Shown here in pieces: positions 1 through 12,441 of a stretch of DNA of 13,383 nt; the stretch's first letter is position 1, and every line of letters starts with the position of its first letter. Under the pieces are notes generated by a model, which worked only from the letters and a program-made list of their open reading frames with translations, ran no database searches and was not told the origin of the DNA. The translations under genes were made by a program, and so were the position numbers. The stretch lies in assembly GCA_045599485.1 (NCBI GenBank), contig JAZRWA010000117.1, positions 1 to 13,383 on the forward strand, read 5' to 3'. Source of the stretch: Clostridia bacterium. Its GTDB lineage: Bacteria > Bacillota > Clostridia > Christensenellales > Aristaeellaceae.

Positions 1-421
1 CATCGGTGAAGGAGTAGAATGCTTCCTGAATGACGGAAGGGAAAGGGGATGTCTGCTCGTTCAATCCGGACGCGTCATAGGGAACAGGCTGTCCCTCGAA
101 GTACTCGGGGTAAAGAATGGCCAGCGTGACGGTGGGACGAAGGATGCCGGAAGCGAGAAAGTCAGCGGCGGCAGAGGCATCGCTGACAGCAGAGACAGCG
201 GTTTCGCCGTTCAGCGAAGGATAAGTGATACCAATGGTACGGTAGAGTGTGGGGCTGCTGTCGTGATCGACAAAACGAAGTTCCACATTGTTTTCGAACT
301 ACTCGGGAACGATGATACGCATGGTATTCCAGAGGGTGTCACAGACTGAAAGATCCTACGCGAAGGCGGGAGAAGCTGCCAAACAGAACAGCAACAGAAT
401 CAGGAACAGTTTTGTTTTCAT
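1..421 (-). CDS. Secreted hypothetical protein (N-terminal ~140 codons; C-terminus lies beyond the window start), read through two in-frame TAG codons at 356..358 and 299..301
   Basis: ATG at 421..419 is followed by MKTKLFLILLLFCLAASPAFA, a typical Sec signal peptide with an A-x-A site. I checked the same frame (plus-strand triplets starting at position 2) codon by codon. It holds no TAA or TGA down to position 2, only the two TAGs. It is absent from the ORF track because TAG splits it and it is open-ended. No protein family recognised. Confidence 0.5.
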
Positions 422-453
422 ATGAGCCTGCCTTTTTGAGGATGTTGCGGGAA

Positions 454-1962
454 TTAATCGACGGGGTAGGAGTAGCCGAACATGCTGGAAAGATCACGAC
501 ATTTGTCGGGATTGACGTTGGCCGCACGGTTGATCATATCGCCCATGAACCACATGAAGGTGCTTCCGCCGCCGTCCAGATTGAGCGCCTGCGTGCAGCC
601 CATGCCAAGCATGTGGTTGGCGAGCCAACGGAAGGTGCAGCCGTTGGAGGTGGAGATACGTCCCTGTACCAGAACCGCCCAGTAATGGCAGGGTTCAACC
701 ATACCAAGGGCCATGCGCGGGTTTTTGTCGTTGTTAAGCACATTGCTGATGGAAAGGCTTTCGTTGACGATGCCGTCTTCAATGAGGATAGGACCGAAAG
801 CGAACGTATCGGTGACGCCCATCTGCAGGTATTCCTCGGCGGTGAGCTCATCACTGTCATAGACTCGCATGGTGCCGTCGTTGAACAGCGCCAGTACATC
901 AAGCGGCGGGAAGTTTTTGTTGCCCTTGGGTCGGGTGACGGTGGAGATGATCTCGCCGCCGCGGATGATGATGCCTTCGGGCAGTTTGTTATAATGACGG
1001 ATGCCGAAATAGTCGTCGCTGAAGGCAAACAGCGCGTTGTACTGCTTGACAATATCAAAGGGACCGATCAGATTGTAGCCGTCCGCCTTGCGTCCTTTGC
1101 CGAGCATGGCAGAAGGCAGCGAGTTGGGAGTGCAGTAGATTTCTGCTTCGAACCATGTCATCAGGGGGCTCTTGGTGGAGTAACGGCGGATGGCGATGGA
1201 AAGATCATGGCTGATGTAATACCACTGACCGTCATCCCGGTTGGAGTAGGAGAAGGGTTTGGCGGATTCATCCGCCAGGAAGTGCTCCTCATTCAGTTCG
1301 GGAAGTTCCACCTGCTTCTGGGGCCCCTTGGGGGTTGCAGTCACCTTGGGCGTCGGGGTAGGCTTGGGAGTGGGAGACGGCGTAGGGGAAGGCGTGGGCA
1401 GCGTGAAAAGCAGCTCCTGTTCCCCGGCGGTCAGATAGCCGGTCTGCTCGTGACCGAGATACGACTGAAAGGACTTGGTTGCGGTGATCAGGGTCTTGTT
1501 GTAGGTGCCCGCGGTAGCGGTGGAGTTGAAATAGCGCCAGAGGATCAGCTGCTTCTTGGCTGCCAGCACATCATCACCGCTGCATCCGTCATAGAAATCA
1601 CGGTAGCTGTTGCCGGTATATTCGGGCAGCGTAACAGATTCGCCGTTCAAAGCAGCAGAGAGCTTCCGGCTGTAGGCATTATCCGAATAGATCAGCGTTT
1701 GCAGCTCCTGCGTGGCGATACCTGTCTCGGCAAAGCCGCAATCGGATTCAAACTGGCGGATACGCTTTTCGGTATCGGAAGTGAAATCCTCTGTGAACTT
1801 ATTGGAAGTGAAATATCCCAGTTCGTACAGACGCTTTTTAAGCGCTTTGACGTCATCACCGCTGCTGCCGTTTTTGAGGGTACGGTAAGTGCCCTCCGCG
1901 GAGGCAAAGCTCAGAAGGAACAACAGCAGGAAGGTTACGATAAGCAGAATTGTTTTTTTCAT
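454..1962 (-). CDS. Secreted cell-wall-associated protein: signal peptide, two peptidoglycan-binding (PG_binding_1-like) repeats, Pro/Thr linker, C-terminal phosphodiester glycosidase (NAGPA/DUF2233-like) domain
   Basis: 502-aa ORF. N-terminus MKKTILLIVTFLLLFLLSFASA|EG. Two repeats of the G..GDDV..L...L...GY pattern (SSGDDVKALKKRLYELGYF, CSGDDVLAAKKQLILWRYF). TPSPTPSPTPKPTPTPK linker. C-terminal ALNLDGGGSTFMW motif typical of the phosphodiester glycosidase family. TAA stop at 454..456. Confidence 0.85.
   Translation of the reverse strand: MKKTILLIVTFLLLFLLSFASAEGTYRTLKNGSSGDDVKALKKRLYELGYFTSNKFTEDFTSDTEKRIRQFESDCGFAETGIATQELQTLIYSDNAYSRKLSAALNGESVTLPEYTGNSYRDFYDGCSGDDVLAAKKQLILWRYFNSTATAGTYNKTLITATKSFQSYLGHEQTGYLTAGEQELLFTLPTPSPTPSPTPKPTPTPKVTATPKGPQKQVELPELNEEHFLADESAKPFSYSNRDDGQWYYISHDLSIAIRRYSTKSPLMTWFEAEIYCTPNSLPSAMLGKGRKADGYNLIGPFDIVKQYNALFAFSDDYFGIRHYNKLPEGIIIRGGEIISTVTRPKGNKNFPPLDVLALFNDGTMRVYDSDELTAEEYLQMGVTDTFAFGPILIEDGIVNESLSISNVLNNDKNPRMALGMVEPCHYWAVLVQGRISTSNGCTFRWLANHMLGMGCTQALNLDGGGSTFMWFMGDMINRAANVNPDKCRDLSSMFGYSYPVD
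1318..1401 (-). repeat. Low-complexity Pro/Thr-rich linker-coding repeat inside the 454..1962 CDS
   Basis: Encodes LPTPSPTPSPTPKPTPTPKVTATPKGP. On the plus strand this appears as reiterated GG(N)G(T/A)(N) units (ggcgtcggggtaggcttgggagtgggagacggcgtaggggaaggcgtggg). Confidence 0.6.
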
Positions 1963-2067
1963 CTGATTTTTTTCCTAAATCGCATTCGTGCATTTACGAC
2001 AGCACGCCCCGAGCCCGAAAACAAAGCATTTCCGGGCCCGGAGCGGGCAGAAAAAGCATAGAAATAA

Positions 2068-3108
2068 TTATTTGGCGTTTTTGACCTGATCCCAGAAGGT
2101 GTTGTAGAGGCTCAGGGTCTTATCATCCAGGTCGTGATAGAATTCGCAGCGGGCAATCACTTCGTCGGAGGGATTGATGGTCTCGTTTTCGGTATACTCT
2201 TCACCCATCAGATCGATGGCACCCTGGTTGGGGCTGGAGTAGAAGATGTATTCACAGTTCATCTGGGCGATGTCGGGACGGCAGAGGAAGTCGATCAGCT
2301 TCTCGGCGTTTTCCTTGTTCTTGGCATCGGCGGGGATGACGAGGGGATCGATCCAGATGTTGCTGCCTTCCATGGGCACCACATAGTCAAGGTCTTCGTT
2401 GCCGTCCATGGCGTACAGCGCGTCGCCGCTGTACACAACAGCCAGAGCGGCCTCACCCTTGATCATAGCGTCCTTGGTTTCATCCACATAGTAGGCTTTG
2501 ACAAGGGGTTTCTGTTCCAGGAGGGAGTTTTTGGCTTCGTTGAGCTCTTTGATGTCGGCACTGTTGGCGCTGTAGCCATTGACTTTGAGGCCGATCAGCA
2601 TCGCGTCACGCAGAGAGAGCATCATGAAGATCTGGTCGGCATACTGCTCGTCCCAGAGAATCTTCCAGGAGGAGGCGTCCTCAGCGCTCACTTTGGTGGT
2701 ATCGAAGAGGATGCCCAGCGTGCCCCACATGAAGGGGACGGTGAACTTTCCTTCCGGATCGTAGTCGGCATTGCGAAGATCCTCACGGATATAGGCGAAG
2801 TTGGGGATGTTGTCAAAGTTGATCTCCTGAATGAGCTCTTCCTTGATCATGCGCTCTACGCAATAATCGGAAGGTACGACCAAATCGTAGCTGCCGCGGC
2901 TGGTGCGCAGGGCAATCATCATGTCTTCATTTTCGGTAAAGTACATACAGTTGACCTTGATGCCGGTTTCGTCGGTGAACATATCGAGAACGGCGGGATC
3001 CATGTAGTCGTACCAGTTGAAGAGATTGACTACTTCTTCAGCGGATGCGACAGAGAGGAGGGAGATGAGCAGCAGCGCTGCCATGAGCAGGGAAACGAAT
3101 TTTTTCAT
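2068..3108 (-). CDS. potD: Spermidine/putrescine ABC transporter substrate-binding protein
   Basis: 346-aa ORF with a cleavable signal peptide (LLSVASA|EE). PotD-like sequence throughout (NLFNWYDYMDP..., FTVPFMWGTLGI, SNIWIDPLVIP). GGAGG RBS upstream of the ATG at 3108. Last gene of the regulator-potABCD string. TAA stop. Confidence 0.93.
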   Translation of the reverse strand: MKKFVSLLMAALLLISLLSVASAEEVVNLFNWYDYMDPAVLDMFTDETGIKVNCMYFTENEDMMIALRTSRGSYDLVVPSDYCVERMIKEELIQEINFDNIPNFAYIREDLRNADYDPEGKFTVPFMWGTLGILFDTTKVSAEDASSWKILWDEQYADQIFMMLSLRDAMLIGLKVNGYSANSADIKELNEAKNSLLEQKPLVKAYYVDETKDAMIKGEAALAVVYSGDALYAMDGNEDLDYVVPMEGSNIWIDPLVIPADAKNKENAEKLIDFLCRPDIAQMNCEYIFYSSPNQGAIDLMGEEYTENETINPSDEVIARCEFYHDLDDKTLSLYNTFWDQVKNAK

Positions 3109-3157
3109 TTGACTGTCCTCCGTTTTTTAATATGCATAAGCCATATGGCCGGATGCC

Positions 3158-3934
3158 TTATTTTTTTTCGTCTGCTGTCATGGTGCGGCGATTGACAACA
3201 ATCAAAAGTACCAGCATGACAACAAACATGATACTGCTCAGGGCGTACATGGTGGGCTTGATGCCCTTGCGTGCCTGAGAATAAATGAGGGTGGAAAGAT
3301 TCTGCACCAGCGGCGAAGTGGTGAAATAACTGATGGTGAAGTCGTCCAGAGACAGGGTGAACGCGAAAATGGCACCGGTGACCACGCCGGGCATGATCTG
3401 CGGAATGATCACGTGGCGAAGTGCGTAGGACGGTGTTGCACCAAGGTCAAGCGCGGCCTAATACGTGTTCTGATTCATTTGCGACAGCTTTGGCATGACT
3501 GATACGATGACATAGGGGATGTCAAAGGTGATGTGAGCCAGAAGCATCGTGACGTATCCGCGTTCCACTCTCGTGAAGATGAAGAGCAGCATCAGCGAGA
3601 TACCTGTAACAATGTCGGGCATGGTCATGGGAATGTTGTTGAGGGCCAGCATGAGACCCTGCGGACGCTTTTTCATCGCATGGATGCCGATGGCGGCAAG
3701 GGTGCCAAGAAGGGTGGCGAATACCGTAGCCAGAAGAGCGATCGTGACGGTGATGAAAAGTGCCTGCATGATATCGGCATTACCGAACAGTTCACCATAC
3801 CAACGGAAGGAGACGCCTTCAAATTTGGCACGGCTTGTGCCGCTGTTGAAGGAGAAAACGATCATGACGATGATGGGGATGTAAAGCAAAAGCAGCAGCA
3901 GCGCCAGATAGATGCGTTTAAGTGCTTTTGTCAT
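3158..3934 (-). CDS. potC: Spermidine/putrescine ABC transporter permease, full length only if the in-frame TAG at 3458..3460 is read as sense
   Basis: ORF-track pieces 3458..3934 and 3158..3412 share one frame (both starts are 2 mod 3). The stretch between them translates as ...SQMNQNTY-[TAG]-AALDLGATPSYALRHVIIPQIMPGV..., the ABC-permease EAA loop. Total 258 codons, a normal PotC length. ATGA start/stop overlap with potB at 3931..3934. TAA stop at 3158..3160. Confidence 0.85.
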
Positions 3935-4995
3935 ACGGCACCGCCTCCTTCTCCCTCGGGATCGACTTTGCGCAAAATTCCGATGGAAATGAGCATCAAA
4001 ATCATCATGATCAGCGACATGGCGCTGCCGGGGTTCCAGTCGGAGATCGTGGCGGAAAGGAACTTGCTTTCAATCAGATCGCCGAAAAGCTGCACCTTGC
4101 TGCCGCCAAGCAGTCGGCTGATGTAGAAGGTCGTCACAGCGGGCATGAAAACCATGGTAATACCGCTGACCACGCCGGGAATCGAAAGAGGCATGGTGAC
4201 TTTGTAGAACGTCTGCCATTTGTTGCAGCCCAGGTCCATCGCCGCTTCGGAGAGCTTGTAGTCCATTTTGTTAAGGACATTGTAGATAGGGAAAACCATG
4301 AACGGCAGGAAGTTGTAGATCATGCCGAACAGTACGGCACCGGAGGTGTTGAGCAGCTTCAGACGACCAATGCCGATCCATTCGAGGAAGCTGTTGATGA
4401 TACCGTTGCTTTCCATCAGTTCCATCAGTGCGACGGTACGCAGCAGGAAGTTCATCCACATGGGAACGATGAAGAGCACGATCAGTACAGGACCGGCTTT
4501 GAAGCCGCGCTCCGTCATGAAATGCGCTGCAGGGTAACCGAGCAGCAGGCAGGCGACTGTGCACAGGAACGCCATCCACACGGAGAACACAAGCGTGGAA
4601 ATATTGACGGCACCGTAACCGAGGCCGAGGTCTTCGGCGGTGATACCCATTTCGGCATATACGGCAAGGTCATCCGCCATATTTTTGCGGGCCAGATAGT
4701 TGCTGTCCCAGAAAGCGGCGAAATTATCCAGTGTCAGGGCGCCGTTGACATCGGTAAAGGCGTAATAGGCCACCAACAGACACGGAACGACCGTGAAGAT
4801 GATGATCCACAGTACATAGGGGGAAGCGAACAGGGGGCGATTGACGCCGTGATTGTGCTTAACATACCCGGCAACGAGTACAATGAAGCCAATCAGGCCC
4901 AATCCCATCAGCAGATAGGCCCAGATGGGCAGCTCAAACGTTGTCAACTGCGACCGCACCTCCCGCTGCATAGGGATTCCAGTCCTCGGTGGCAT
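3931..4995 (-). CDS. potB: Spermidine/putrescine ABC transporter permease
   Basis: 354-aa ORF, multi-TM, with the EAA loop [28 protein letters not shown]. The true start is more likely the ATG at 4971..4969 (GAGGA about 11 nt upstream) than the one at 4995, which has no RBS. Overlaps the 3' end of potA. TGA stop overlaps the potC start. Confidence 0.9.
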
Positions 4996-6028
4996 GCATG
5001 ATGTGAATGTTGAAGGGGACGATGCTCAGACCAACGCGGCTTCCTTCAGGCTGCATCGTGGTGGAATGCACCTTCCAGGTGGAGTGGCCGGCGTCAATGA
5101 TCATTTCATAATGTACGCCCTTGAACAGTACGCTCTTGACAGTGCCGGTGATCTGACCGATATCTTCGCCCACGACCATGATATCTTCGGGTCGTACAAC
5201 AACATCCACGGGTACATTTTCTCCAAAACCGGAGTCAACACACTGGAAGCGGGTGGAACAGAATTCAACCAGCTCGTCACGGATCATGGTGCCCCGGAAA
5301 ATGTTGGATTCGCCAATGAAGTTGGCGACGAAGGCATTTTTGGGTTCATCGTAAATATCCTTCGGCTTGCCGATCTGAAGGATTTTGCCGCTGCGCATGA
5401 CCACGATGGTATCACTCATGGTCAGGGCTTCTTCCTGATCGTGCGTCACGTACAGGAAGGTGATGCCCAAGCGCTGCTGCATGTTTTTGATCTCCAGCTG
5501 CATGTCCTTGCGGAGCTTGAGATCCAGGGCCCCCAGAGGTTCATCCAGCAGAAGCATTTCGGGCTCGTTGACCAGCGCGCGGGCAATGGCGATGCGCTGC
5601 TGCTGACCGCCGGACAGAGAATCGACATCACGTTTGCCGTATCCCTGAAGGTTGACCAGGTCAAGCATTTTGTTGACTTTTTTATCGATTTCTCCACGGC
5701 TCATTTTTTTGATCTTCAGGCCGAAAGCAATGTTGTCGTGGACGTTCAGATGTGGGAAAAGCGCATACTTCTGAAAAACGGTGTTGACGCGGCGCTTGTA
5801 GGGAGGAAGACCGACGATGTCCTTGCCTTCGAACATGACCTGACCGGAGGTAGGAGACTCGAAGCCGCCGATGATGCGCAGCGTGGTGGTTTTGCCGCAA
5901 CCGGAGGGCCCCAGCAGGGTGACAAATTCCTTTTTGCGGATATAGAGGCTGATATTGTCCAGAACCGTAACGCCGTCATAGTCCTTGCAGAGGTTCTGAA
6001 GATGAATCATATAGGGTGAATCGCTCAT
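4934..6028 (-). CDS. potA: Spermidine/putrescine ABC transporter ATP-binding protein
   Basis: 364 aa. Walker [13 protein letters not shown] signature LSGGQQQR, Walker B LLLDEP, C-terminal TOBE-like regulatory domain. AAGGAG RBS 9 nt upstream of the ATG at 6028. TGA stop. Confidence 0.95.
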
Positions 6029-6052
6029 GAAGGCAATCTCCTTTATATTTTA

Positions 6053-6598
6053 TCAGAAGCTTGGGGGATTGGAGACCCAGATGACTTTGGCAGGGCGTTT
6101 GCCGGTATTGATCAGCCGGTGCGGCGCGGTCGGGTGAATACAGAAGCTGCTGCCGCATTTGACACGGTGCCGCTGCTCGCCGAGCTTGAGCACAACGCTG
6201 CCGGAGAGAACATAACCGAATTCCTCTCCTTCGTGCGGAGGAAGTTCGAAGGACTCTCCTCCGGGACCGATCTAAAGCAGGATGGGTTCCATGTCGTTTT
6301 TCTGAGCGCTGGGTACCAGCCAGACAACGCTGCCCCGGAGTGCTTCTTCATCGGTTTTTTCAAACATGTCGACAGCGTCAAATACAATTTTTTCGTCATC
6401 GTCGTTTTCTGAAAAAAAGGTTTTGAGATCACTGCCGAGGCACTCGAGCATATCAGTCAGCGTAGCAATGGAGGGCGACGCCAGGTCGCGCTCCACCTGC
6501 GAAATGAAGCCTTTGCTCAGTTCACAGCGGTCGGCCATTTCTTCCTGAGTCAGGTTGCGCTGCAAACGCAGACGGTGCAGCTTTTCACCGATGTTCAT
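6053..6598 (-). CDS. XRE-family HTH + cupin transcriptional regulator (PuuR-like architecture), full length only if the in-frame TAG at 6272..6274 is read as sense
   Basis: N-terminal HTH (MNIGEKLHRLRLQRNLTQEEMADRCELSKGFISQVERD). After ...MEPILL-[TAG] the same frame continues IGPGGESFELPPHEGEEFGYVLSGSVVLKLGEQRHRVKCGSSFCIHPTAPHRLINTGKRPAKVIWVSNPPSF, a complete cupin barrel. It ends at TGA 6053..6055, 24 nt before the potA start. 181 codons is the normal length for this family. Confidence 0.85.
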
Positions 6599-6656
6599 GT
6601 TCTGCCTCTTTGATGCGTGAAGTTTAGTAAAAGTAAATTTTGTGTGAAAGTCCGGA

Positions 6657-6673
6657 GTTTAGAATTACTAAAC
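6657..6673. promoter_or_regulatory. Candidate operator: inverted repeat GTTTAG-N5-CTAAAC, with a further GTTTAGTAA copy at 6622..6630
   Basis: Perfect 6-bp arms separated by aatta. The arm plus flank (GTTTAGTAA, read on the minus strand) recurs on the plus strand at 6622..6630. Both lie in the leader of the XRE-cupin/pot operon, downstream of its putative -10. Confidence 0.3.
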
Positions 6674-6688
6674 AGGCGAACGCAAATA

Positions 6689-6717
6689 AGTAAACCATAA
6701 AACATGGGAGATGTCAA
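6689..6717 (-). promoter_or_regulatory. Putative sigmaA promoter for the regulator-potABCD operon
   Basis: On the minus strand: TTGACA (6717..6712), 17-nt spacer, then TGgTTTACT (-10 at 6694..6689, 4/6 match with an extended TG). Position and orientation fit the ATG at 6598. Confidence 0.35.
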
Positions 6718-6739
6718 TATGATTTTTATTAACAATTTG

Positions 6740-6768
6740 TTGCAAAGCGACTGGAATTCTGGTATAAT
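6740..6768 (+). promoter_or_regulatory. SigmaA promoter of the ctsR-mcsA-mcsB-clpC operon
   Basis: TTGCAA (6740..6745), exactly 17 nt, then TGgTATAAT (perfect -10 at 6763..6768 with an extended -10 TG at 6760..6761). Lies 50 nt upstream of the ctsR ATG. Confidence 0.7.
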
Positions 6769-6774
6769 AGCAAT

Positions 6775-6791
6775 GGTCAAAGTTAGTCAGT
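6775..6791 (+). promoter_or_regulatory. CtsR operator (direct heptad repeat)
   Basis: GGTCAAA-GTT-AGTCAGT compared with the published CtsR box RGTCAAA-NAN-RGTCAAA. The first heptad is perfect and the second matches 5/7. It sits immediately downstream of the -10 and overlaps the expected transcription start, as in autoregulated ctsR/clpC operons. Confidence 0.7.
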
Positions 6792-6818
6792 GAACAGCAT
6801 TGACCGGAGGAAGCCTAT

Positions 6819-7310
6819 ATGCGTTTAAGTGATGCAATCGAACAATTTATCAAAGAAATGATGCAGGCGGGAGAGCAGCCCGGCATTGATCTGAAAAGGA
6901 ATGAGCTGGCAGATTATTTCCATTGTGCGCCTTCGCAGATCAATTATGTGCTCTCAACCCGCTTTACACCCGATCATGGGTATGTGACCAGCAGTCAGCG
7001 CGGCGGCGGCGGTTATATCCGTATTGTGCGGATCGTACGCCGTCCGGAGGAACAATTGAACTATCTGCTCAACGAGCGGATCGGCAATGCCATTACCGCT
7101 GCGGACGCAATGATACTGTGCGGGCAATTGTTGGAAAATGATGTGATTACCGAGGATGAAGCTTTGCTGATGAAATCTGCGGTTTCGCAGGCAGCATTTG
7201 CGGTGCCCATTCCTGAGAATGTAAAGGACGCGGTGCGTGCCAAGGTGCTGCGCAGTATGCTGCTTGAAGTAATGCAGAGAAAGGACGGCGGGCGAGATGA
7301 TGATGTGTGA
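6819..7310 (+). CDS. ctsR: Class III stress-gene transcriptional repressor CtsR
   Basis: 163 aa. MRLSDAIEQFIKEMM... N-terminus and the diagnostic ...SQRGGGGYIRIVRI glycine-rich winged-HTH loop. GGAGGA RBS 8 nt upstream. First gene of the operon. TGA stop. Confidence 0.93.
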   Translation: MRLSDAIEQFIKEMMQAGEQPGIDLKRNELADYFHCAPSQINYVLSTRFTPDHGYVTSSQRGGGGYIRIVRIVRRPEEQLNYLLNERIGNAITAADAMILCGQLLENDVITEDEALLMKSAVSQAAFAVPIPENVKDAVRAKVLRSMLLEVMQRKDGGRDDDV

Positions 7311-7824
7311 AGAATGCGGAAAGCGTCCTGCGATCTTGAACGTTACAGTGCTATTTGCTGGGAAAAAGATCAGCCGCAGTCTTTGCCCTGTGTGCGCGGC
7401 CAAAATGCAGCGCGGGGACGCGGCGGGCGCCCAGAGCGCGGTCATGGGGTCTTTGCGTACAGAGGAAAGTGTTCAGCACCTCAGCTGCCCTCAATGCGGA
7501 ACGACCGGAGAAAAGCTGCTGAAGGAGGGCCGGGTCGGCTGTGCAGAGTGCTATAAAACCTTCAGATCGATTCTGAAGGATGTTCTGATGAGCCTGAACG
7601 GTGTGGATCATCATGTGTCGGACGGATGGGAAGAGGATCATTCGGATGCTCCGGAGGAAATTCAGCTGGAGGTCGCGCAGATGACCGAACCGTCTGATGA
7701 AGAGAAAAAAGCGGCTTCACTGCGGGAAGCTTTGTTTGAAGCGGTGCAGAGAGAAGATTTTGAGGAAGCAGCAAGGCTGCGGGATCAGATCCGCGCAGCG
7801 GAAAGCGTGAAGCATGAAGGATGA
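7297..7824 (+). CDS. mcsA: McsA (protein-arginine kinase activator; zinc-finger + UVR motif protein)
   Basis: 175 aa. Paired CxxC motifs (CEECGKRPA..., CPVCAAK, CPQCG...GCAECY) and a C-terminal UVR motif (REDFEEAARLRDQIRAAE). Overlaps the ctsR stop. Three consecutive ATGs at 7297..7305 leave the start ambiguous by up to 2 codons. TGA stop. Confidence 0.88.
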   Translation: MMMCEECGKRPAILNVTVLFAGKKISRSLCPVCAAKMQRGDAAGAQSAVMGSLRTEESVQHLSCPQCGTTGEKLLKEGRVGCAECYKTFRSILKDVLMSLNGVDHHVSDGWEEDHSDAPEEIQLEVAQMTEPSDEEKKAASLREALFEAVQREDFEEAARLRDQIRAAESVKHEG

Positions 7825-8800
7825 AATCATCAACGGTTCTGTCACGCTGAGAAGAAATTATGCCGATCTTCCTTTTGACGCGTTGAAAAACAGCGATACC
7901 GCCCTGCCAATCCTGACGCGCGTGACGACGCGGCTGCAGCAGGAAGAAGAGACATGGATCGCACTTCCCGAATCACGCATGGACGAAGAAGGAAAAAGGG
8001 TTTTTCGATTTCTGCGGTTGATCAGCAACGATATTGACGATGCTGTGAATGCACAGCTGTTTGTGCTGAAAGGGGACAGCGCAGCGGTACAGGCCGCGGC
8101 AGCGGATCATGTGGCGGTGACTGTAACTCGTTCTGCTGATGATCTGGAGTTTTCCTATAATAAATGCAAAGATATCATTCGAAAACTGGAGGACAGTCAT
8201 CCCTATGCAAGAACGGGGGAATTAGGTTATCTGACAGCACGCCCCTGCGATGCGGGAAGCGGACTGAGAGCTTCCCTGCTGCTGCATTTGCCAATGCTTC
8301 AATTCTCCCGGCAGCTGCCGATGGCGATGAAGCTTTGCGGAGACAAAGGACTGCTTTTGCGGCCTGAAACCGTAGCGATGCCGGGTCAGGCGCCGGCACT
8401 GTACCTGATATAGAACCGGGTTACCATGGGCAAAACCGATGAGGAGCTGATGACGGCTGTAAAAAAAGGCGCGGAAGTTCTGATAGCACTTGAACGAAAA
8501 CAACGGGAAGAAGCCCGGGTAAAGCAATCGGATGGGCCGCTTGATGCCGTCTATCGTGCGTATGGAGAGGCACGCTATGCCCGCCGATATACACGGGCGG
8601 AATGTGGGGTGCTGTGGTCCAGAATGACGCTGGGGTATTCATTGGGCGTCATGCTGGTGCGTCCGCCGGAGCTGGATAAGCTGTGGAGCATGGCGTTTGA
8701 AAACCAGCGGGAATGGAAGGCCGCGGCGGCTCAGCAGGCAGTCAGCGAGGATGTACTGCGGGCCAGAAAAATCAGAGAATTACTGAGCGGAGGTGCCTGA
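7814..8800 (+). CDS. mcsB: McsB-type protein arginine kinase homologue (divergent), full length only if the in-frame TAG at 8411..8413 is read as sense
   Basis: ORF-track pieces 7814..8413 and 8426..8800 share one frame. The junction reads ...GQAPALYLI-[TAG]-NRVTMGKTDEELMTAV..., matching the conserved McsB ...QISNQxTLGxSE... segment. The phosphagen-kinase signature GYLTARPCDAGSGLRASLLLHLP is present upstream. 328 codons. Sits between mcsA and clpC as expected. TGA stop overlaps the clpC ATG. Confidence 0.85.
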
Positions 8801-11202
8801 TGGCAACCTATAACAGATTGAATGAAAAAGCAAAGCGTGTTCTGGAAACGGCGCGTACGGAAGCGGCAAATCTGATGCAAAACTGTATCGGTACAGAGCA
8901 TTTGCTGCTGTCACTGCTGATTTGCGCCCCGGAGGATGTGCCGGAGCTGCCGGAGAGCCTGAATCCCGAAATGGTACGCTCCGCCATTCGCATTCTGAGC
9001 GCGGGCAACGGACAAGGTGAGCTGCCGGATGAGCTGACGCCAAACGCAAAAAAAGTGCTGGATAACAGCTATCGCATTGCCCGCCAGTTTCAGCAGAACT
9101 ATGTGACCGCGGCGCATTTGTGGCTGGCGTTATTGGATGAAGAAGAGGGCATGGCCTCACGCATTCTGAACGCACCCGGCATTGACCGAAAAAAGCTGCG
9201 GGAAAATGCTGCACGGAAGGCTGCGGGGGAAAACAATGCGCCTTCCAAAGAAAAGGAAGAAAAGACACTGCTGGATCAGTATGGTATCGATCTGACGGAA
9301 AAAGCGCGTTGCAACGAGCTGGATCCTGTGATTGGACGAGATCGTGAGACTGAGCGTATCATTCAGATCTTATCCCGCCGTACCAAGAACAATCCGGTAC
9401 TCATCGGCGAACCCGGTGTGGGAAAAACGGCTGTCGCAGAAGGACTGGCTGAAAAAATCATCAGCGGACAGATTCCCGAGACGCTGGTTGGAAAACGGCT
9501 GATCAGCCTGGATACCGGTGCGTTGATTGCGGGTACCAAGTTCCGCGGAGAGTTTGAAGATCGGCTTACGGGGCTGATGCGGGAAGTGAAAGAAGCCGGC
9601 GATGTGATTCTGTTTATCGATGAACTTCAGAACATCGTCGGCATGGGCAAGGGTGAAGGCACGATGGACGCAGCCAATATCCTAAAGCCCATGCTCTCCC
9701 GCGGTGAGCTGCAGTGCGTCGGCGCTACTACCACAGATGAGTATCGTAAGCACATTGAAAAGGATGCAGCGCTGTCCCGTCGCTTTCAGCCTGTCATGGT
9801 GGACGAACCGACCGAGGAAGAAGCGGTCATGATCCTGAAGGGACTGCGTGATAAATACGAAGCGCATCATCGTGTGCACTTTACCGATGAAGCCCTTGAA
9901 GCGGCAGTGAAGCTGTCCGCACGCTATGTGGCAGACAGGTGCATGCCCGATAAGGCGGTGGACCTGATGGACGAGGCAGGCTCCAGGGTACGTATTGCTT
10001 CCTTTACGCCTCCGCCCGATCTTAAGGAGCAGGAAAGTTCACTGCAGGCAATATCCCGCGAAAAGCAGGAAGCCATCGACCGTCAGGATTATGAGCGTGC
10101 CGCGGCTTTACGGGATGATGAGCATGCCATCCGGGCTGAGATGGATCGAAGCAGAACGGAATGGGAGAACAAGAAGCTATCTTCGGTTGGTGTGGTCAGC
10201 GAAGAGGATATTGCCGCTGTGGTATCCGCGTGGACGGGTATTCCGGTACAGCGGATGACAGAAGTGGAAAGTGAAAGGCTTTTGCACTTGGAAGAGATCC
10301 TGCATCAGCGCGTGGTGGGACAGACCGAGGCGGTTTCGGCAGTATGCCGGGCGATCCGCCGCGCAAGGGCAGGCCTGAAGGACCCCAAACGCCCCATCGG
10401 CAGCTTTTTGTTCCTCGGTCCGACAGGCGTCGGAAAAACGGAGCTCAGCCGGGCCCTGGGCGAAGCGATGTTCGGGGATGAAAACGCGCTGATCCGCCTG
10501 GATATGAGCGAGTACATGGAAAAGCATACCGTATCCAGAATGGTAGGCGCACCGCCCGGCTATGTAGGATACGAAGAGGGCGGTCAGCTGACGGAAGCAG
10601 TACGGCGCAGACCCTATTCAGTGGTGCTGTTTGACGAAATCGAAAAGGCGCATCCCGATGTGTTCAATATGCTGCTGCAGGTATTGGAGGACGGACGCCT
10701 TACCGATAATAACGGGCGCACAGTCAGCTTCCGAAATTGTATTATCGTCATGACCTCCAACGCGGGTGCGCAGGCGATCAACGAAAACCGCGTGCTTGGC
10801 TTTGGCAGCAGCGGCGCGGCGGATTATGATCGTATGCGCGACAGCGTGAAGGATGCGCTGAAGAGGATGTTCAAGCCGGAGTTTTTGAATCGAATCGATG
10901 AAACGGTGATCTTCCATGCGCTGACGAAGGAAGAGATCAGGCAGATCGCTGCCCTGATGCTGGAACAGATGAGAAAACGCCTAAACGAAAAGGGAGTGCG
11001 GCTCAGCTTCAGCAACGAAGCCATAGCACTACTTGCTGACGGGGGATTTGATGAAAAGCTCGGTGCGCGTCCGCTGCGCCGGGAAATTCAACGGAGCGTA
11101 GAGGACAGCCTCAGTGAAGAGCTGATCGCAGGCAGGCTGAAGCTGGATGATAGCATCCGCATGTATGTAAAAAACGGAAAGATCGCTTTTAAAAAGCAAT
11201 AA
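8800..11202 (+). CDS. clpC: ATP-dependent Clp protease ATP-binding subunit ClpC (class III stress AAA+ unfoldase)
   Basis: 800 aa starting [22 protein letters not shown] (Clp_N repeats). Walker A motifs GEPGVGKT and [11 protein letters not shown] linker ([12 protein letters not shown]). C-terminal ClpB_D2-small domain. I prefer the ATG at 8800 (TGATG overlap with the mcsB stop) to the track start at 8713, which lies inside mcsB. TAA stop. Confidence 0.95.
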
Positions 11203-11237
11203 AAAACAGCCCCGAAGGCAGCACGCTTTCGGGGCTG
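11201..11237. terminator. Bidirectional intrinsic terminator between convergent clpC and the HD-hydrolase gene
   Basis: 13-bp GC-rich stem CAGCCCCGAAGGC / GCTTTCGGGGCTG (11207..11219 pairs with 11225..11237, one G-U pair) with a 5-nt loop. An A6 tract at 11201..11206 gives a U-tract for the minus-strand transcript. Confidence 0.75.
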
Positions 11238-11249
11238 TACATTATGGAA

Positions 11250-11894
11250 TTAATGTTCTCCGTCCCACTACAGCAGGAATTCATCAAGGAAAGTATGCAT
11301 GAAACGATCGCGTTCCGCGGCAATGCGGGCGGCGGAGGGGGTGTTCATCATGTCCTTGAGGAGGAACAGCTTTTCGTAAAAGTGATTGACTGTGGAAGAG
11401 ACAGAACGACGGTATTCGAAGGCGGACATGTTGGCTGTCGGCGGTACGGCCGGGTCGTGAAGCGGGCGGTTGCGGCTGCCGCCGAAAGCGAAGGCTCTAG
11501 CGACACCGATTGCGCCGATGGCATCCAGACGGTCAGCGTCCTGCACGCATTTGCCCTCGAGTGTTTTCGGCGTGACGGAATCGGTACCGCGGAAGGAAAT
11601 CTCGCCGATGATCTCAAGGATAGCGTTGGCGGTATCCTGTATTACGTCATTCTATCGAAGGAAGGACGTCGCACGCAAAAGCCCCTCGTGCGTGTCGGGG
11701 GAAAGCTTGAAATCATCCACATCATGAAGGATTGCTGCAAGCGCGGTGATGAACGGGTCGGCACCTTCCTGCTTTGCAAGTGTCAATGCCAAGCGGTAAA
11801 CACGCTGAGTATGGCTGAAATCATGCCCGCTGAAGTCATTCACGAAAACGCTTTGCGCAAAGGAGAGCGCTTTTGAGATGAGTGCGTCTCCCAT
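11250..11894 (-). CDS. HD-domain metal-dependent phosphohydrolase (YedJ/YpgQ-like), with an in-frame TAG at 11652..11654 and a second TAG at 11268..11270, six codons before a TAA
   Basis: ORF-track pieces 11652..11894 and 11268..11546 share one frame. The gap translates [35 protein letters not shown] and leads into [21 protein letters not shown] motif ...AAILHDVDD and the DADRLDA motif are present. If TAG is sense the frame continues -WDGEH- to TAA at 11250..11252, 12 nt from the terminator stem. If TAG terminates here the end is 11268. Confidence 0.8.
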
Positions 11895-11895
11895 T

Positions 11896-12441
11896 TTAAA
11901 CCTCTAACGTATGATAGACTTCGCCGTCAAGGTTCTTCCACTCGAAATGGCAGTTGTCCATGATCATGTAGCTATGGGCAGTGTTCTCCTTCGGCAGGGA
12001 TACGGAACCGGGGTTGAGATACAGATTGTGATTGCCAAAATCCAGCCATGAAGGCACATGCGTGTGACCGTGCAGCAGAATGTCACCATTTTGCAGCGGC
12101 GGCGGCGTCATGGTGTTGAATACATGACCATGAGTGGCGTAAATCAGACGGGAACCGGCTTCAAAAATGGCGGTATCGCTCATGATGGGGAATTGCAGTA
12201 CCATCTGATCCACTTCTGCATCGCAGTTGCCGCGGACACAGATGATACGGCTCGACAGTGGATTCAGCATGGCAATGACGGATTTGGGAGCGTATTCCTC
12301 AGGCAGGTCGTTGCGGGGACCGTGATACAGGATATCACCGAGAAGCAGCAGCCGATCGGCATTTTCAGCCTCAAAGCGCTGAAGGAGTTGACGGCAATAA
12401 TATGCGGAACCGTGGATATCGGATGCAATCATCAGTTTCAT
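11896..12441 (-). CDS. yfcE: YfcE-family metallophosphoesterase (MJ0936-type phosphodiesterase)
   Basis: 181 aa. [12 protein letters not shown]..., [24 protein letters not shown] and GHTH motifs, collinear with E. coli YfcE. GGAGG RBS 6 nt upstream. TAA stop 1 nt before the HD-gene ATG, which suggests translational coupling. Confidence 0.9.

Follow-up and report, generated by a model that had tools for sequence, protein, structure and literature searches.

In-frame TAG codons in a contig of an uncultured Clostridia bacterium suggest that UAG is read as glutamate

Does TAG end translation in this bacterium, or does it stand for an amino acid? The question is raised by a complete contig of 13,383 bp from an uncultured bacterium of gut type, a Clostridia-type member of the Bacillota for which metagenome assemblies are the only source. 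This contig, the whole of the DNA that was analysed, is here called the window. Several of its genes, among them potC and mcsB, are interrupted by TAG in an otherwise open reading frame. We suggest that in this bacterium, and in its close relatives too, UAG is decoded as glutamate (Glu), so that TAG is a rare third Glu codon and TAA and TGA still terminate; we give this reading a probability of roughly 0.8. That UAG is translated in this clade is very probable.

In-frame TAG codons in the window

Genes were called on the window with TAA and TGA as the only stops, reading through TAG. This gave 14 genes: one for a secreted hypothetical protein, one for a peptidoglycan-binding (PG-binding)/NAGPA protein, potD, potC, potB and potA, a gene for an XRE-cupin regulator, ctsR, mcsA, mcsB and clpC, and genes for an HD hydrolase, a YfcE-like phosphoesterase and a pyrimidine-nucleoside phosphorylase. 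TAG interrupts five of the 14, two of them twice, giving a total of seven TAG codons (Table 1). The original prediction for this DNA had listed seven in-frame TAGs, and all were found where it had placed them, with the flanking codons exactly as quoted. It had also claimed that no in-frame TAA, TGA or frameshift occurs, and none is present in the 14 genes, which amount to 4,286 codons. With read-through, PotC, the XRE-cupin regulator, McsB and the HD hydrolase are each encoded by one unbroken frame and have the normal family lengths that had been claimed for them.

The frame also runs on into family-conserved sequence, as predicted. Pfam matches cross the TAG in three proteins: BPD_transp_1 in PotC (residues 74-247, TAG at 159), ATP-gua_Ptrans in McsB (residues 40-229, TAG at 200) and HD in the HD hydrolase (residues 26-125, TAG at 81). 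In the XRE-cupin regulator the Cupin_2 match (residues 109-175) begins at the TAG, which is its first position. The read-through peptides, with Glu at the TAG, are MNQNTYEAALDLGATPSYALR for PotC and GQAPALYLIENR for McsB.

The secreted hypothetical protein matched no Pfam family, and no homologue was found in either homologue search. One of these used a concatenated query of the HD, XRE and hypothetical proteins, and mostly long HD fusion proteins came back. In its open reading frame (ORF), codon usage remains gene-like in a single frame on either side of each TAG: in the three segments split by the TAGs, the codon-usage log-odds are 0.43, 0.18 and 0.29 in the coding frame, and in the other two frames they are lower everywhere, being negative in five of six comparisons and 0.17 in the remaining one.

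TAG makes up 7 of the 4,286 codons and 7 of the 300 putative Glu codons of the contig, the others being 186 GAA and 107 GAG. If nonsense mutations had struck the codons of these genes at random, the probability that seven out of seven nonsense codons are TAG would be 0.005-0.01. Since GAA is commoner than GAG, G-to-T changes should yield TAA more often than TAG, yet there is no in-frame TAA, which indicates that selection tolerates TAG specifically. The stops of the 12 complete genes are divided between TAA (six genes) and TGA (six genes), with none in TAG. In Clostridia reference loci only 10-12% of genes end in TAG, and its absence from 12 terminators is not significant by itself (P ~0.22-0.28). 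The window could not be told apart from 80 reference loci by counting stops with long open stretches on either side, as non-coding frames dominate such a count, and this measure was dropped.

The TAG codons in relatives

Contigs of relatives come from Logan (ERR11637140, SRR27361835 and SRR17543910) and from ENA (ERZ27247129, with Logan ERR6929691), at 87-92% nucleotide identity. Three of them, L082 (SRR27361835), L083 (ERZ27247129) and L084 (SRR17543910), each share 87-88% identity with the window and 91-98% with one another. A scan of genome contigs with ClpC yielded only relatives of at most 59% identity, as a Clp motif of universal conservation dominated the matches. It should be noted that L083 and L085 (ERR6929691) are 100% identical over 1,377 bp, including a TAG in mcsA, and are probably one sample assembled twice.

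The mcsB TAG is kept in all four relatives that cover the site (L081, L082, L083 and L084), and the XRE-cupin TAG in both relatives that cover it (L082 and L083). The search with McsB returned a fragment of 195 amino acids that is 88% identical, and the Logan contig of this fragment, L081, has a TAG at the same codon, ALYLV-TAG-NRVTMG. Database entries for McsB are cut at the same point in 19 cases, seven being N-terminal fragments, all of 195 amino acids, and 12 being C-terminal fragments. The outgroup contig L086 has the same gene order; its McsB is uninterrupted with E at the site, and its XRE gene is uninterrupted too. XRE homologues of 77-82% identity (P0164-P0167) likewise show no interruption where this clade has TAG. 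For potC, the relative contig L090 ends before the TAG site.

Substitution rates were estimated by the Nei-Gojobori method. Between the window and L082 the synonymous divergence (dS) is ~0.4-1.2, about 0.6. In this comparison the ratio of non-synonymous to synonymous rates (omega) in mcsB is 0.107 upstream and 0.118 downstream of the TAG. In the XRE gene it is 0.022 upstream and 0 downstream, where 26 synonymous and 0 non-synonymous differences were counted. For potC, omega downstream of the TAG is 0.023 between the window and L088. Purifying selection thus acts past the TAGs, which implies that the segments after them are translated in the same frame. Judged from these alignments, the TAGs are long maintained, across a dS of ~0.6.

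The amino acid at UAG

The read-through proteins were aligned with homologues and the residues in the TAG column were counted, which was possible at five alignable sites. The clearest column is the second site of the HD hydrolase, with E in 23 of 23 sequences as part of a conserved EW[DNE]G motif at the C-terminus. The PotC column corresponds to the E of the EAA loop and holds E 29, D 9 and S 1 (n=39). In McsB the counts are E 13, S 5, N 1 and A 1 (n=20), and E is found in all 13 nearest full-length homologues. The XRE-cupin column has E in 24/36, Q in 2/36 and K in 1/36. The first HD site has E 8, S 8, K 3, D 3 and G 1 (n=23), and the five homologues closest to the window protein all have E. 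At each of the five sites E ranks first, in a tie with S at one of them.

The original prediction had proposed inference from codon to profile column as a check and had left the amino acid open, with glutamine (Gln) and pyrrolysine (Pyl) as precedents. Run in the style of Codetta on the five window sites, this inference assigns TAG to Glu. The product of pseudocount-smoothed column frequencies gives a log-likelihood of -2.95 for Glu and -13.2 for Ser, with a Glu posterior near 1. The probability that five random columns of the same alignments would all be topped by E is ~3e-6 to 1e-5.

Further evidence comes from two sites at which TAG and GAG alternate. The potC site reads TAT-TAG-GCC in the window and TAT-GAG-GCT in L088, whose PotC differs in 5 other residues of 258 (~98% identical to the window). 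The mcsA site reads CTC-TAG-GTA in L083, identically in L085, and CTC-GAG-GTA in L084 and L081, both of which are 98% identical to L083; GAG is also found there in the window and L082. We conclude from these two swaps that TAG and GAG are interchangeable in the clade. A GAG origin is expected for 12-19% of randomly arising TAGs, and an origin from GAG in five cases out of five has P = 2e-4 to 3e-5. One G-to-T change in GAG would be enough to create a TAG, which would then persist under selection. Altogether the evidence points to Glu specifically, and on the basis of the alignments the residue at UAG is most likely Glu.

Alternative explanations

The TAGs might be true stops, that is, the genes might be pseudogenes, carry assembly or sequencing errors, or be split so that two polypeptides are translated separately. 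Standard annotation and the protein databases do hold split fragments (P0001, P0287, P0306 and P0457-P0460). Against this, the same TAGs are found in at least four independent datasets from different assemblers, strong purifying selection acts on the same frame in the parts beyond the TAGs, and neither TAA, TGA nor an indel is present in the 4,286 codons. The breaks also lie inside single domains (the EAA loop of a membrane protein, the start of a cupin barrel, an HD domain), and one TAG stands five codons ahead of the real stop, with the conserved WDG motif coming directly after it. We consider true stops extremely unlikely. Decay into pseudogenes was rejected on the restriction of nonsense codons to TAG (P 0.005-0.01), the lack of indels, the downstream omega of 0.00-0.12 and the presence of TAGs common to lineages at dS ~0.6. 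A miscall due to a modified base or a specific motif was rejected as well, considering that eight TAG contexts have no common motif, that none of the 107 GAG codons is affected and that identical TAGs are seen across datasets and assemblers. The original prediction had argued that the flanking bases share no motif beyond TAG, that neither decay nor artefact is at work and that UAG is translated instead of terminating. All three points are strongly supported: the contexts lack a motif and the TAGs recur across assemblers, diverged relatives that were assembled independently have kept them, and the sequence downstream is under purifying selection.

If UAG is translated, it could still be read as a residue other than Glu, namely Pyl or Gln. 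Among prokaryotes and phages, a sense UAG is known only as Pyl and as phage Gln, and in Bacillota a suppressor derived from tRNA-Gln would first be charged with Glu and then possibly amidated to Gln. The columns, however, are dominated by E, which is invariant in one of them (23/23) and in another is that of the EAA loop. Q is confined to a single site, with 2/36 sequences, and K is found in 1/36 (XRE) and 3/23 (one HD site). Both swaps in the clade are between TAG and GAG, and involve neither CAG nor AAG. As to Pyl, the window contains no pyl or methyltransferase genes, and the TAG positions are tied to one standard amino acid, Glu. Another residue is therefore very unlikely. A dual meaning of UAG deserves somewhat more weight, though we still regard it as unlikely. 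Here a suppressor tRNA would insert Glu efficiently, release factor 1 (RF1) would be kept and UAG would still end some genes, as in an ambiguous code or constitutive suppression. TAG terminators elsewhere in the genome are compatible with the window, as 0/12 has P ~0.25 under normal usage, and the rarity of TAG (7/4,286 codons) fits an early or intermediate stage. Ambiguous amber usage has been reported for Pyl-encoding methanogens (PMC12626013). On the other hand, 5/14 genes contain TAG, twice in two cases, and with the core genes potC and mcsB among the five, decoding must be efficient. In mcsB and XRE the TAG has persisted over dS ~0.6, and fresh GAG-to-TAG changes are still tolerated in potC and mcsA.

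Several observations weigh against the reading of UAG as Glu that we prefer. Its basis is the 13.4 kb of the window and ~18 kb of contigs from relatives. Neither the window nor these contigs contain a tRNA gene, and a run of ARAGORN on 44 loci, which included contigs of the relatives, gave no tRNA with anticodon CUA. In some contexts UAG might, in addition, still terminate translation, a matter on which the statistic of 0/12 terminators is uninformative. The amino acid is informed by five window sites and two polymorphic sites only, with the two TAGs of the family-less secreted protein outside the amino-acid test. At the first HD site E is tied with S, and in the XRE-cupin column none of the four closest outgroup sequences has E, their residues being N, N, S and Q. 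Finally, the mcsA TAG allele represents one population, as L083 and L085 are probably the same sample.

A proposed decoding mechanism

Since five of the 14 genes carry TAG, two of them twice, decoding must be efficient and go beyond leaky near-cognate read-through. We suggest that a dedicated, efficient tRNA with the anticodon CUA and carrying Glu serves this purpose. Such a tRNA might have arisen from tRNA-Glu by one change of the anticodon, CUC to CUA. Alternatively, it might stem from tRNA-Gln by a change of CUG to CUA, if the product is charged with Glu and escapes amidation by GatCAB. Bacillota make Gln-tRNA via a non-discriminating glutamyl-tRNA synthetase (GluRS), so that tRNA-Gln is first charged with Glu. 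RF1 would be lost or would no longer recognise UAG, and release factor 2 (RF2) would terminate at UAA and UGA. The loss or change of RF1 is suggested by analogy with the loss of RF2 in bacteria with reassigned UGA (PMC13462651).

The prfA gene is not among the genes of the 13.4-kb contig, and an Rfam search of the window gave no match. JGI metagenome contigs, in which the clade itself is absent, matched neither a pattern for the anticodon arm and T-loop of a tRNA-Glu(CUA)-like molecule nor a clade-specific 22-mer. A complete, genome-wide reassignment of UAG to Glu, in which RF1 is lost and a tRNA(CUA) dedicated to Glu reads the codon, is in our view rather likely.

Comparison with known genetic codes

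We found no report of a natural bacterial code with UAG as Glu in the literature searched. Peritrich ciliates read UAR (UAA and UAG) as Glu. Blastocrithidia likewise has UAR as Glu (PMC12153298). The nuclear codes of these eukaryotes (NCBI tables 30 and 31) resemble the reading proposed for the window in that UAG is glutamate, which there is achieved by a tRNA-Glu with a changed anticodon (PMC12153298). They differ in being eukaryotic and nuclear, in taking UAA and UAG together and in involving eukaryotic release factor 1 (eRF1). Here the organism is a bacterium, UAG alone is affected and UAA ends 6/12 genes.

All bacterial stop reassignments known in 2021 involve UGA (Shulgina and Eddy 2021, PMC8629427), and UGA is also the codon given for bacterial stop reassignments in PMC13462651. 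These codes (tables 4 and 25) are found in Mycoplasmatales, Hodgkinia, Gracilibacteria/Absconditabacteria and Eggerthellaceae. In brief, they too are clade-wide changes from stop to sense, explained by a change of a tRNA anticodon together with loss of the release factor for that codon (PMC13462651, PMC8629427), and in the present clade RF1 would take the place of RF2. In contrast to the UAG considered here, their codon is UGA, their release factor RF2 and their residue Trp or Gly.

Apart from Pyl systems and phages, sense UAG is known from nuclear and organellar codes of eukaryotes. In microbiome sequences it is known from TAG-recoded bacteriophages (code 15-like), which use suppressor tRNAs (PMC10879173). 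Those phages read UAG as Gln in hosts with the standard code, whereas the window carries the chromosomal housekeeping operons potABCD and ctsR-mcsA-mcsB-clpC and the residue is probably Glu. The operon synteny is chromosomal and not that of a phage, and it is common to the relative L086. Pyrrolysine systems, found in Pyl-using Bacillota and genome-wide in some archaea, use the same codon. The first genome-wide reassignment of UAG reported in prokaryotes is that to Pyl in archaea, where it barely lowered coding density (gTranslate preprint). Pyl systems need pylTSBCD, whereas the TAG studied here aligns with Glu, including an invariant Glu, and swaps with GAG. In laboratory amber suppressors and in the RF1-deleted, recoded Escherichia coli C321.deltaA, UAG has been freed from termination and a tRNA with anticodon CUA is used, as proposed here. 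These are engineered; the TAGs studied here are natural and maintained in a clade over dS ~0.6.

The combination of a bacterium, UAG only and Glu differs from every described code. If the reassignment is complete, it would to our knowledge be the first natural reassignment of UAG in a bacterial chromosome and the first code outside eukaryotes in which a stop codon became Glu.

Features and gene neighbourhood of the window

The genes interrupted by TAG and the positions of the TAG codons are given in Table 1.

Table 1. Genes of the window with in-frame TAG codons, and location and context of each TAG
Feature	Position	Strand	Remarks
Secreted hypothetical protein	2..421	-	Signal peptide MKTKLFLILLLFCLAASPAFA; runs off left contig end; two in-frame TAGs
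TAG, GCG-TAG-GAT	356..358	-	Directly after predicted signal-peptide AFA site of the secreted hypothetical protein
TAG, GAG-TAG-TTC	299..301	-	In the secreted hypothetical protein
potC, spermidine/putrescine ABC permease	3158..3934	-	258 amino acids with TAG read through
TAG, NTY-TAG-AALDLGA	3458..3460	-	E position of the PotC EAA loop
XRE-type helix-turn-helix (HTH)/cupin regulator	6053..6598	-	181 amino acids with TAG read through
TAG, MEPILL-TAG-IGPGG	6272..6274	-	First strand of the cupin domain, XRE-cupin regulator
mcsB, protein arginine kinase	7814..8800	+	328 amino acids with TAG read through
TAG, ALYLI-TAG-NRVTMG	8411..8413	+	In mcsB
HD-domain phosphohydrolase	11250..11894	-	214 amino acids with TAG read through
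TAG, SFLR-TAG-NDV	11652..11654	-	Within the HD domain (HD site 1)
TAG, EFLL-TAG-WDGEH	11268..11270	-	Five codons ahead of the TAA stop (HD site 2)

Two more in-frame TAGs lie just upstream of called starts on the negative strand. One, at 11904-11906, is four codons 5' of the HD start (IIR-TAG-RFKM), and the other, at 1986-1988, precedes the NAGPA start by five codons. Should TAG be a sense codon, both ORFs would stay open further in the 5' direction, and start-codon calls in this organism would need re-examination.

Between the XRE-cupin gene and ctsR, a 57-bp block (6648-6704) shows 100% conservation between the window and L082, L083 and L084, at a dS of ~0.6 elsewhere. It contains the near-palindrome TTTAGAATTACTAAA, which may be an operator for the XRE-cupin regulator or else part of a shared promoter. 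Immediately 5' of ctsR, at 6775-6793, we found a tandem heptad resembling a CtsR operator, GGTCAAAGTTAGTCAGT, within 24 bp that do not differ between the window and three relatives. A further block of 56 bp, at the mcsB/clpC junction (8762-8817), is fully conserved among the relatives. The TGA stop of mcsB and the ATG of clpC overlap by one base there (TGATG), which suggests translational coupling of mcsB and clpC.

Synteny breaks after potD. The window has the gene for the PG-binding/NAGPA protein (454-1962) and that for the secreted hypothetical protein, whereas L088 has a gene at 3179-3682, the product of which resembles a class-I glutamine amidotransferase (peptidase C26-like) by eye from the translation only. 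Taken from its first ATG, potB (3931-4995) overlaps the end of potA (4934-6028) by 62 nucleotides. The gene call for PotB in the database begins at MQREV (346 amino acids), giving a shorter overlap with potA.

Implications

Pipelines that apply genetic code 11 fragment about one third of the genes of this organism, so that completeness, annotation and pseudogene counts of such metagenome-assembled genomes (MAGs) are wrong. Genes of the clade are stored in public protein databases as N- and C-terminal fragments (the entries named above and the P0002 cluster). Pairs of database fragments cut at Glu positions may offer a route to further lineages in which TAG is a sense codon.

If UAG is indeed decoded as Glu, a new genetic code table would be needed. 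Termination by RF1 would then be dispensable in a Bacillota lineage of the free-living type with a guanine-cytosine (GC) content of 53%, and not just in reduced or low-GC genomes. The finding would also have a bearing on the conflict between phage and host codes in gut communities, and the clade would hold a natural tRNA/synthetase solution for UAG as Glu, which would be of interest to genetic-code engineering.

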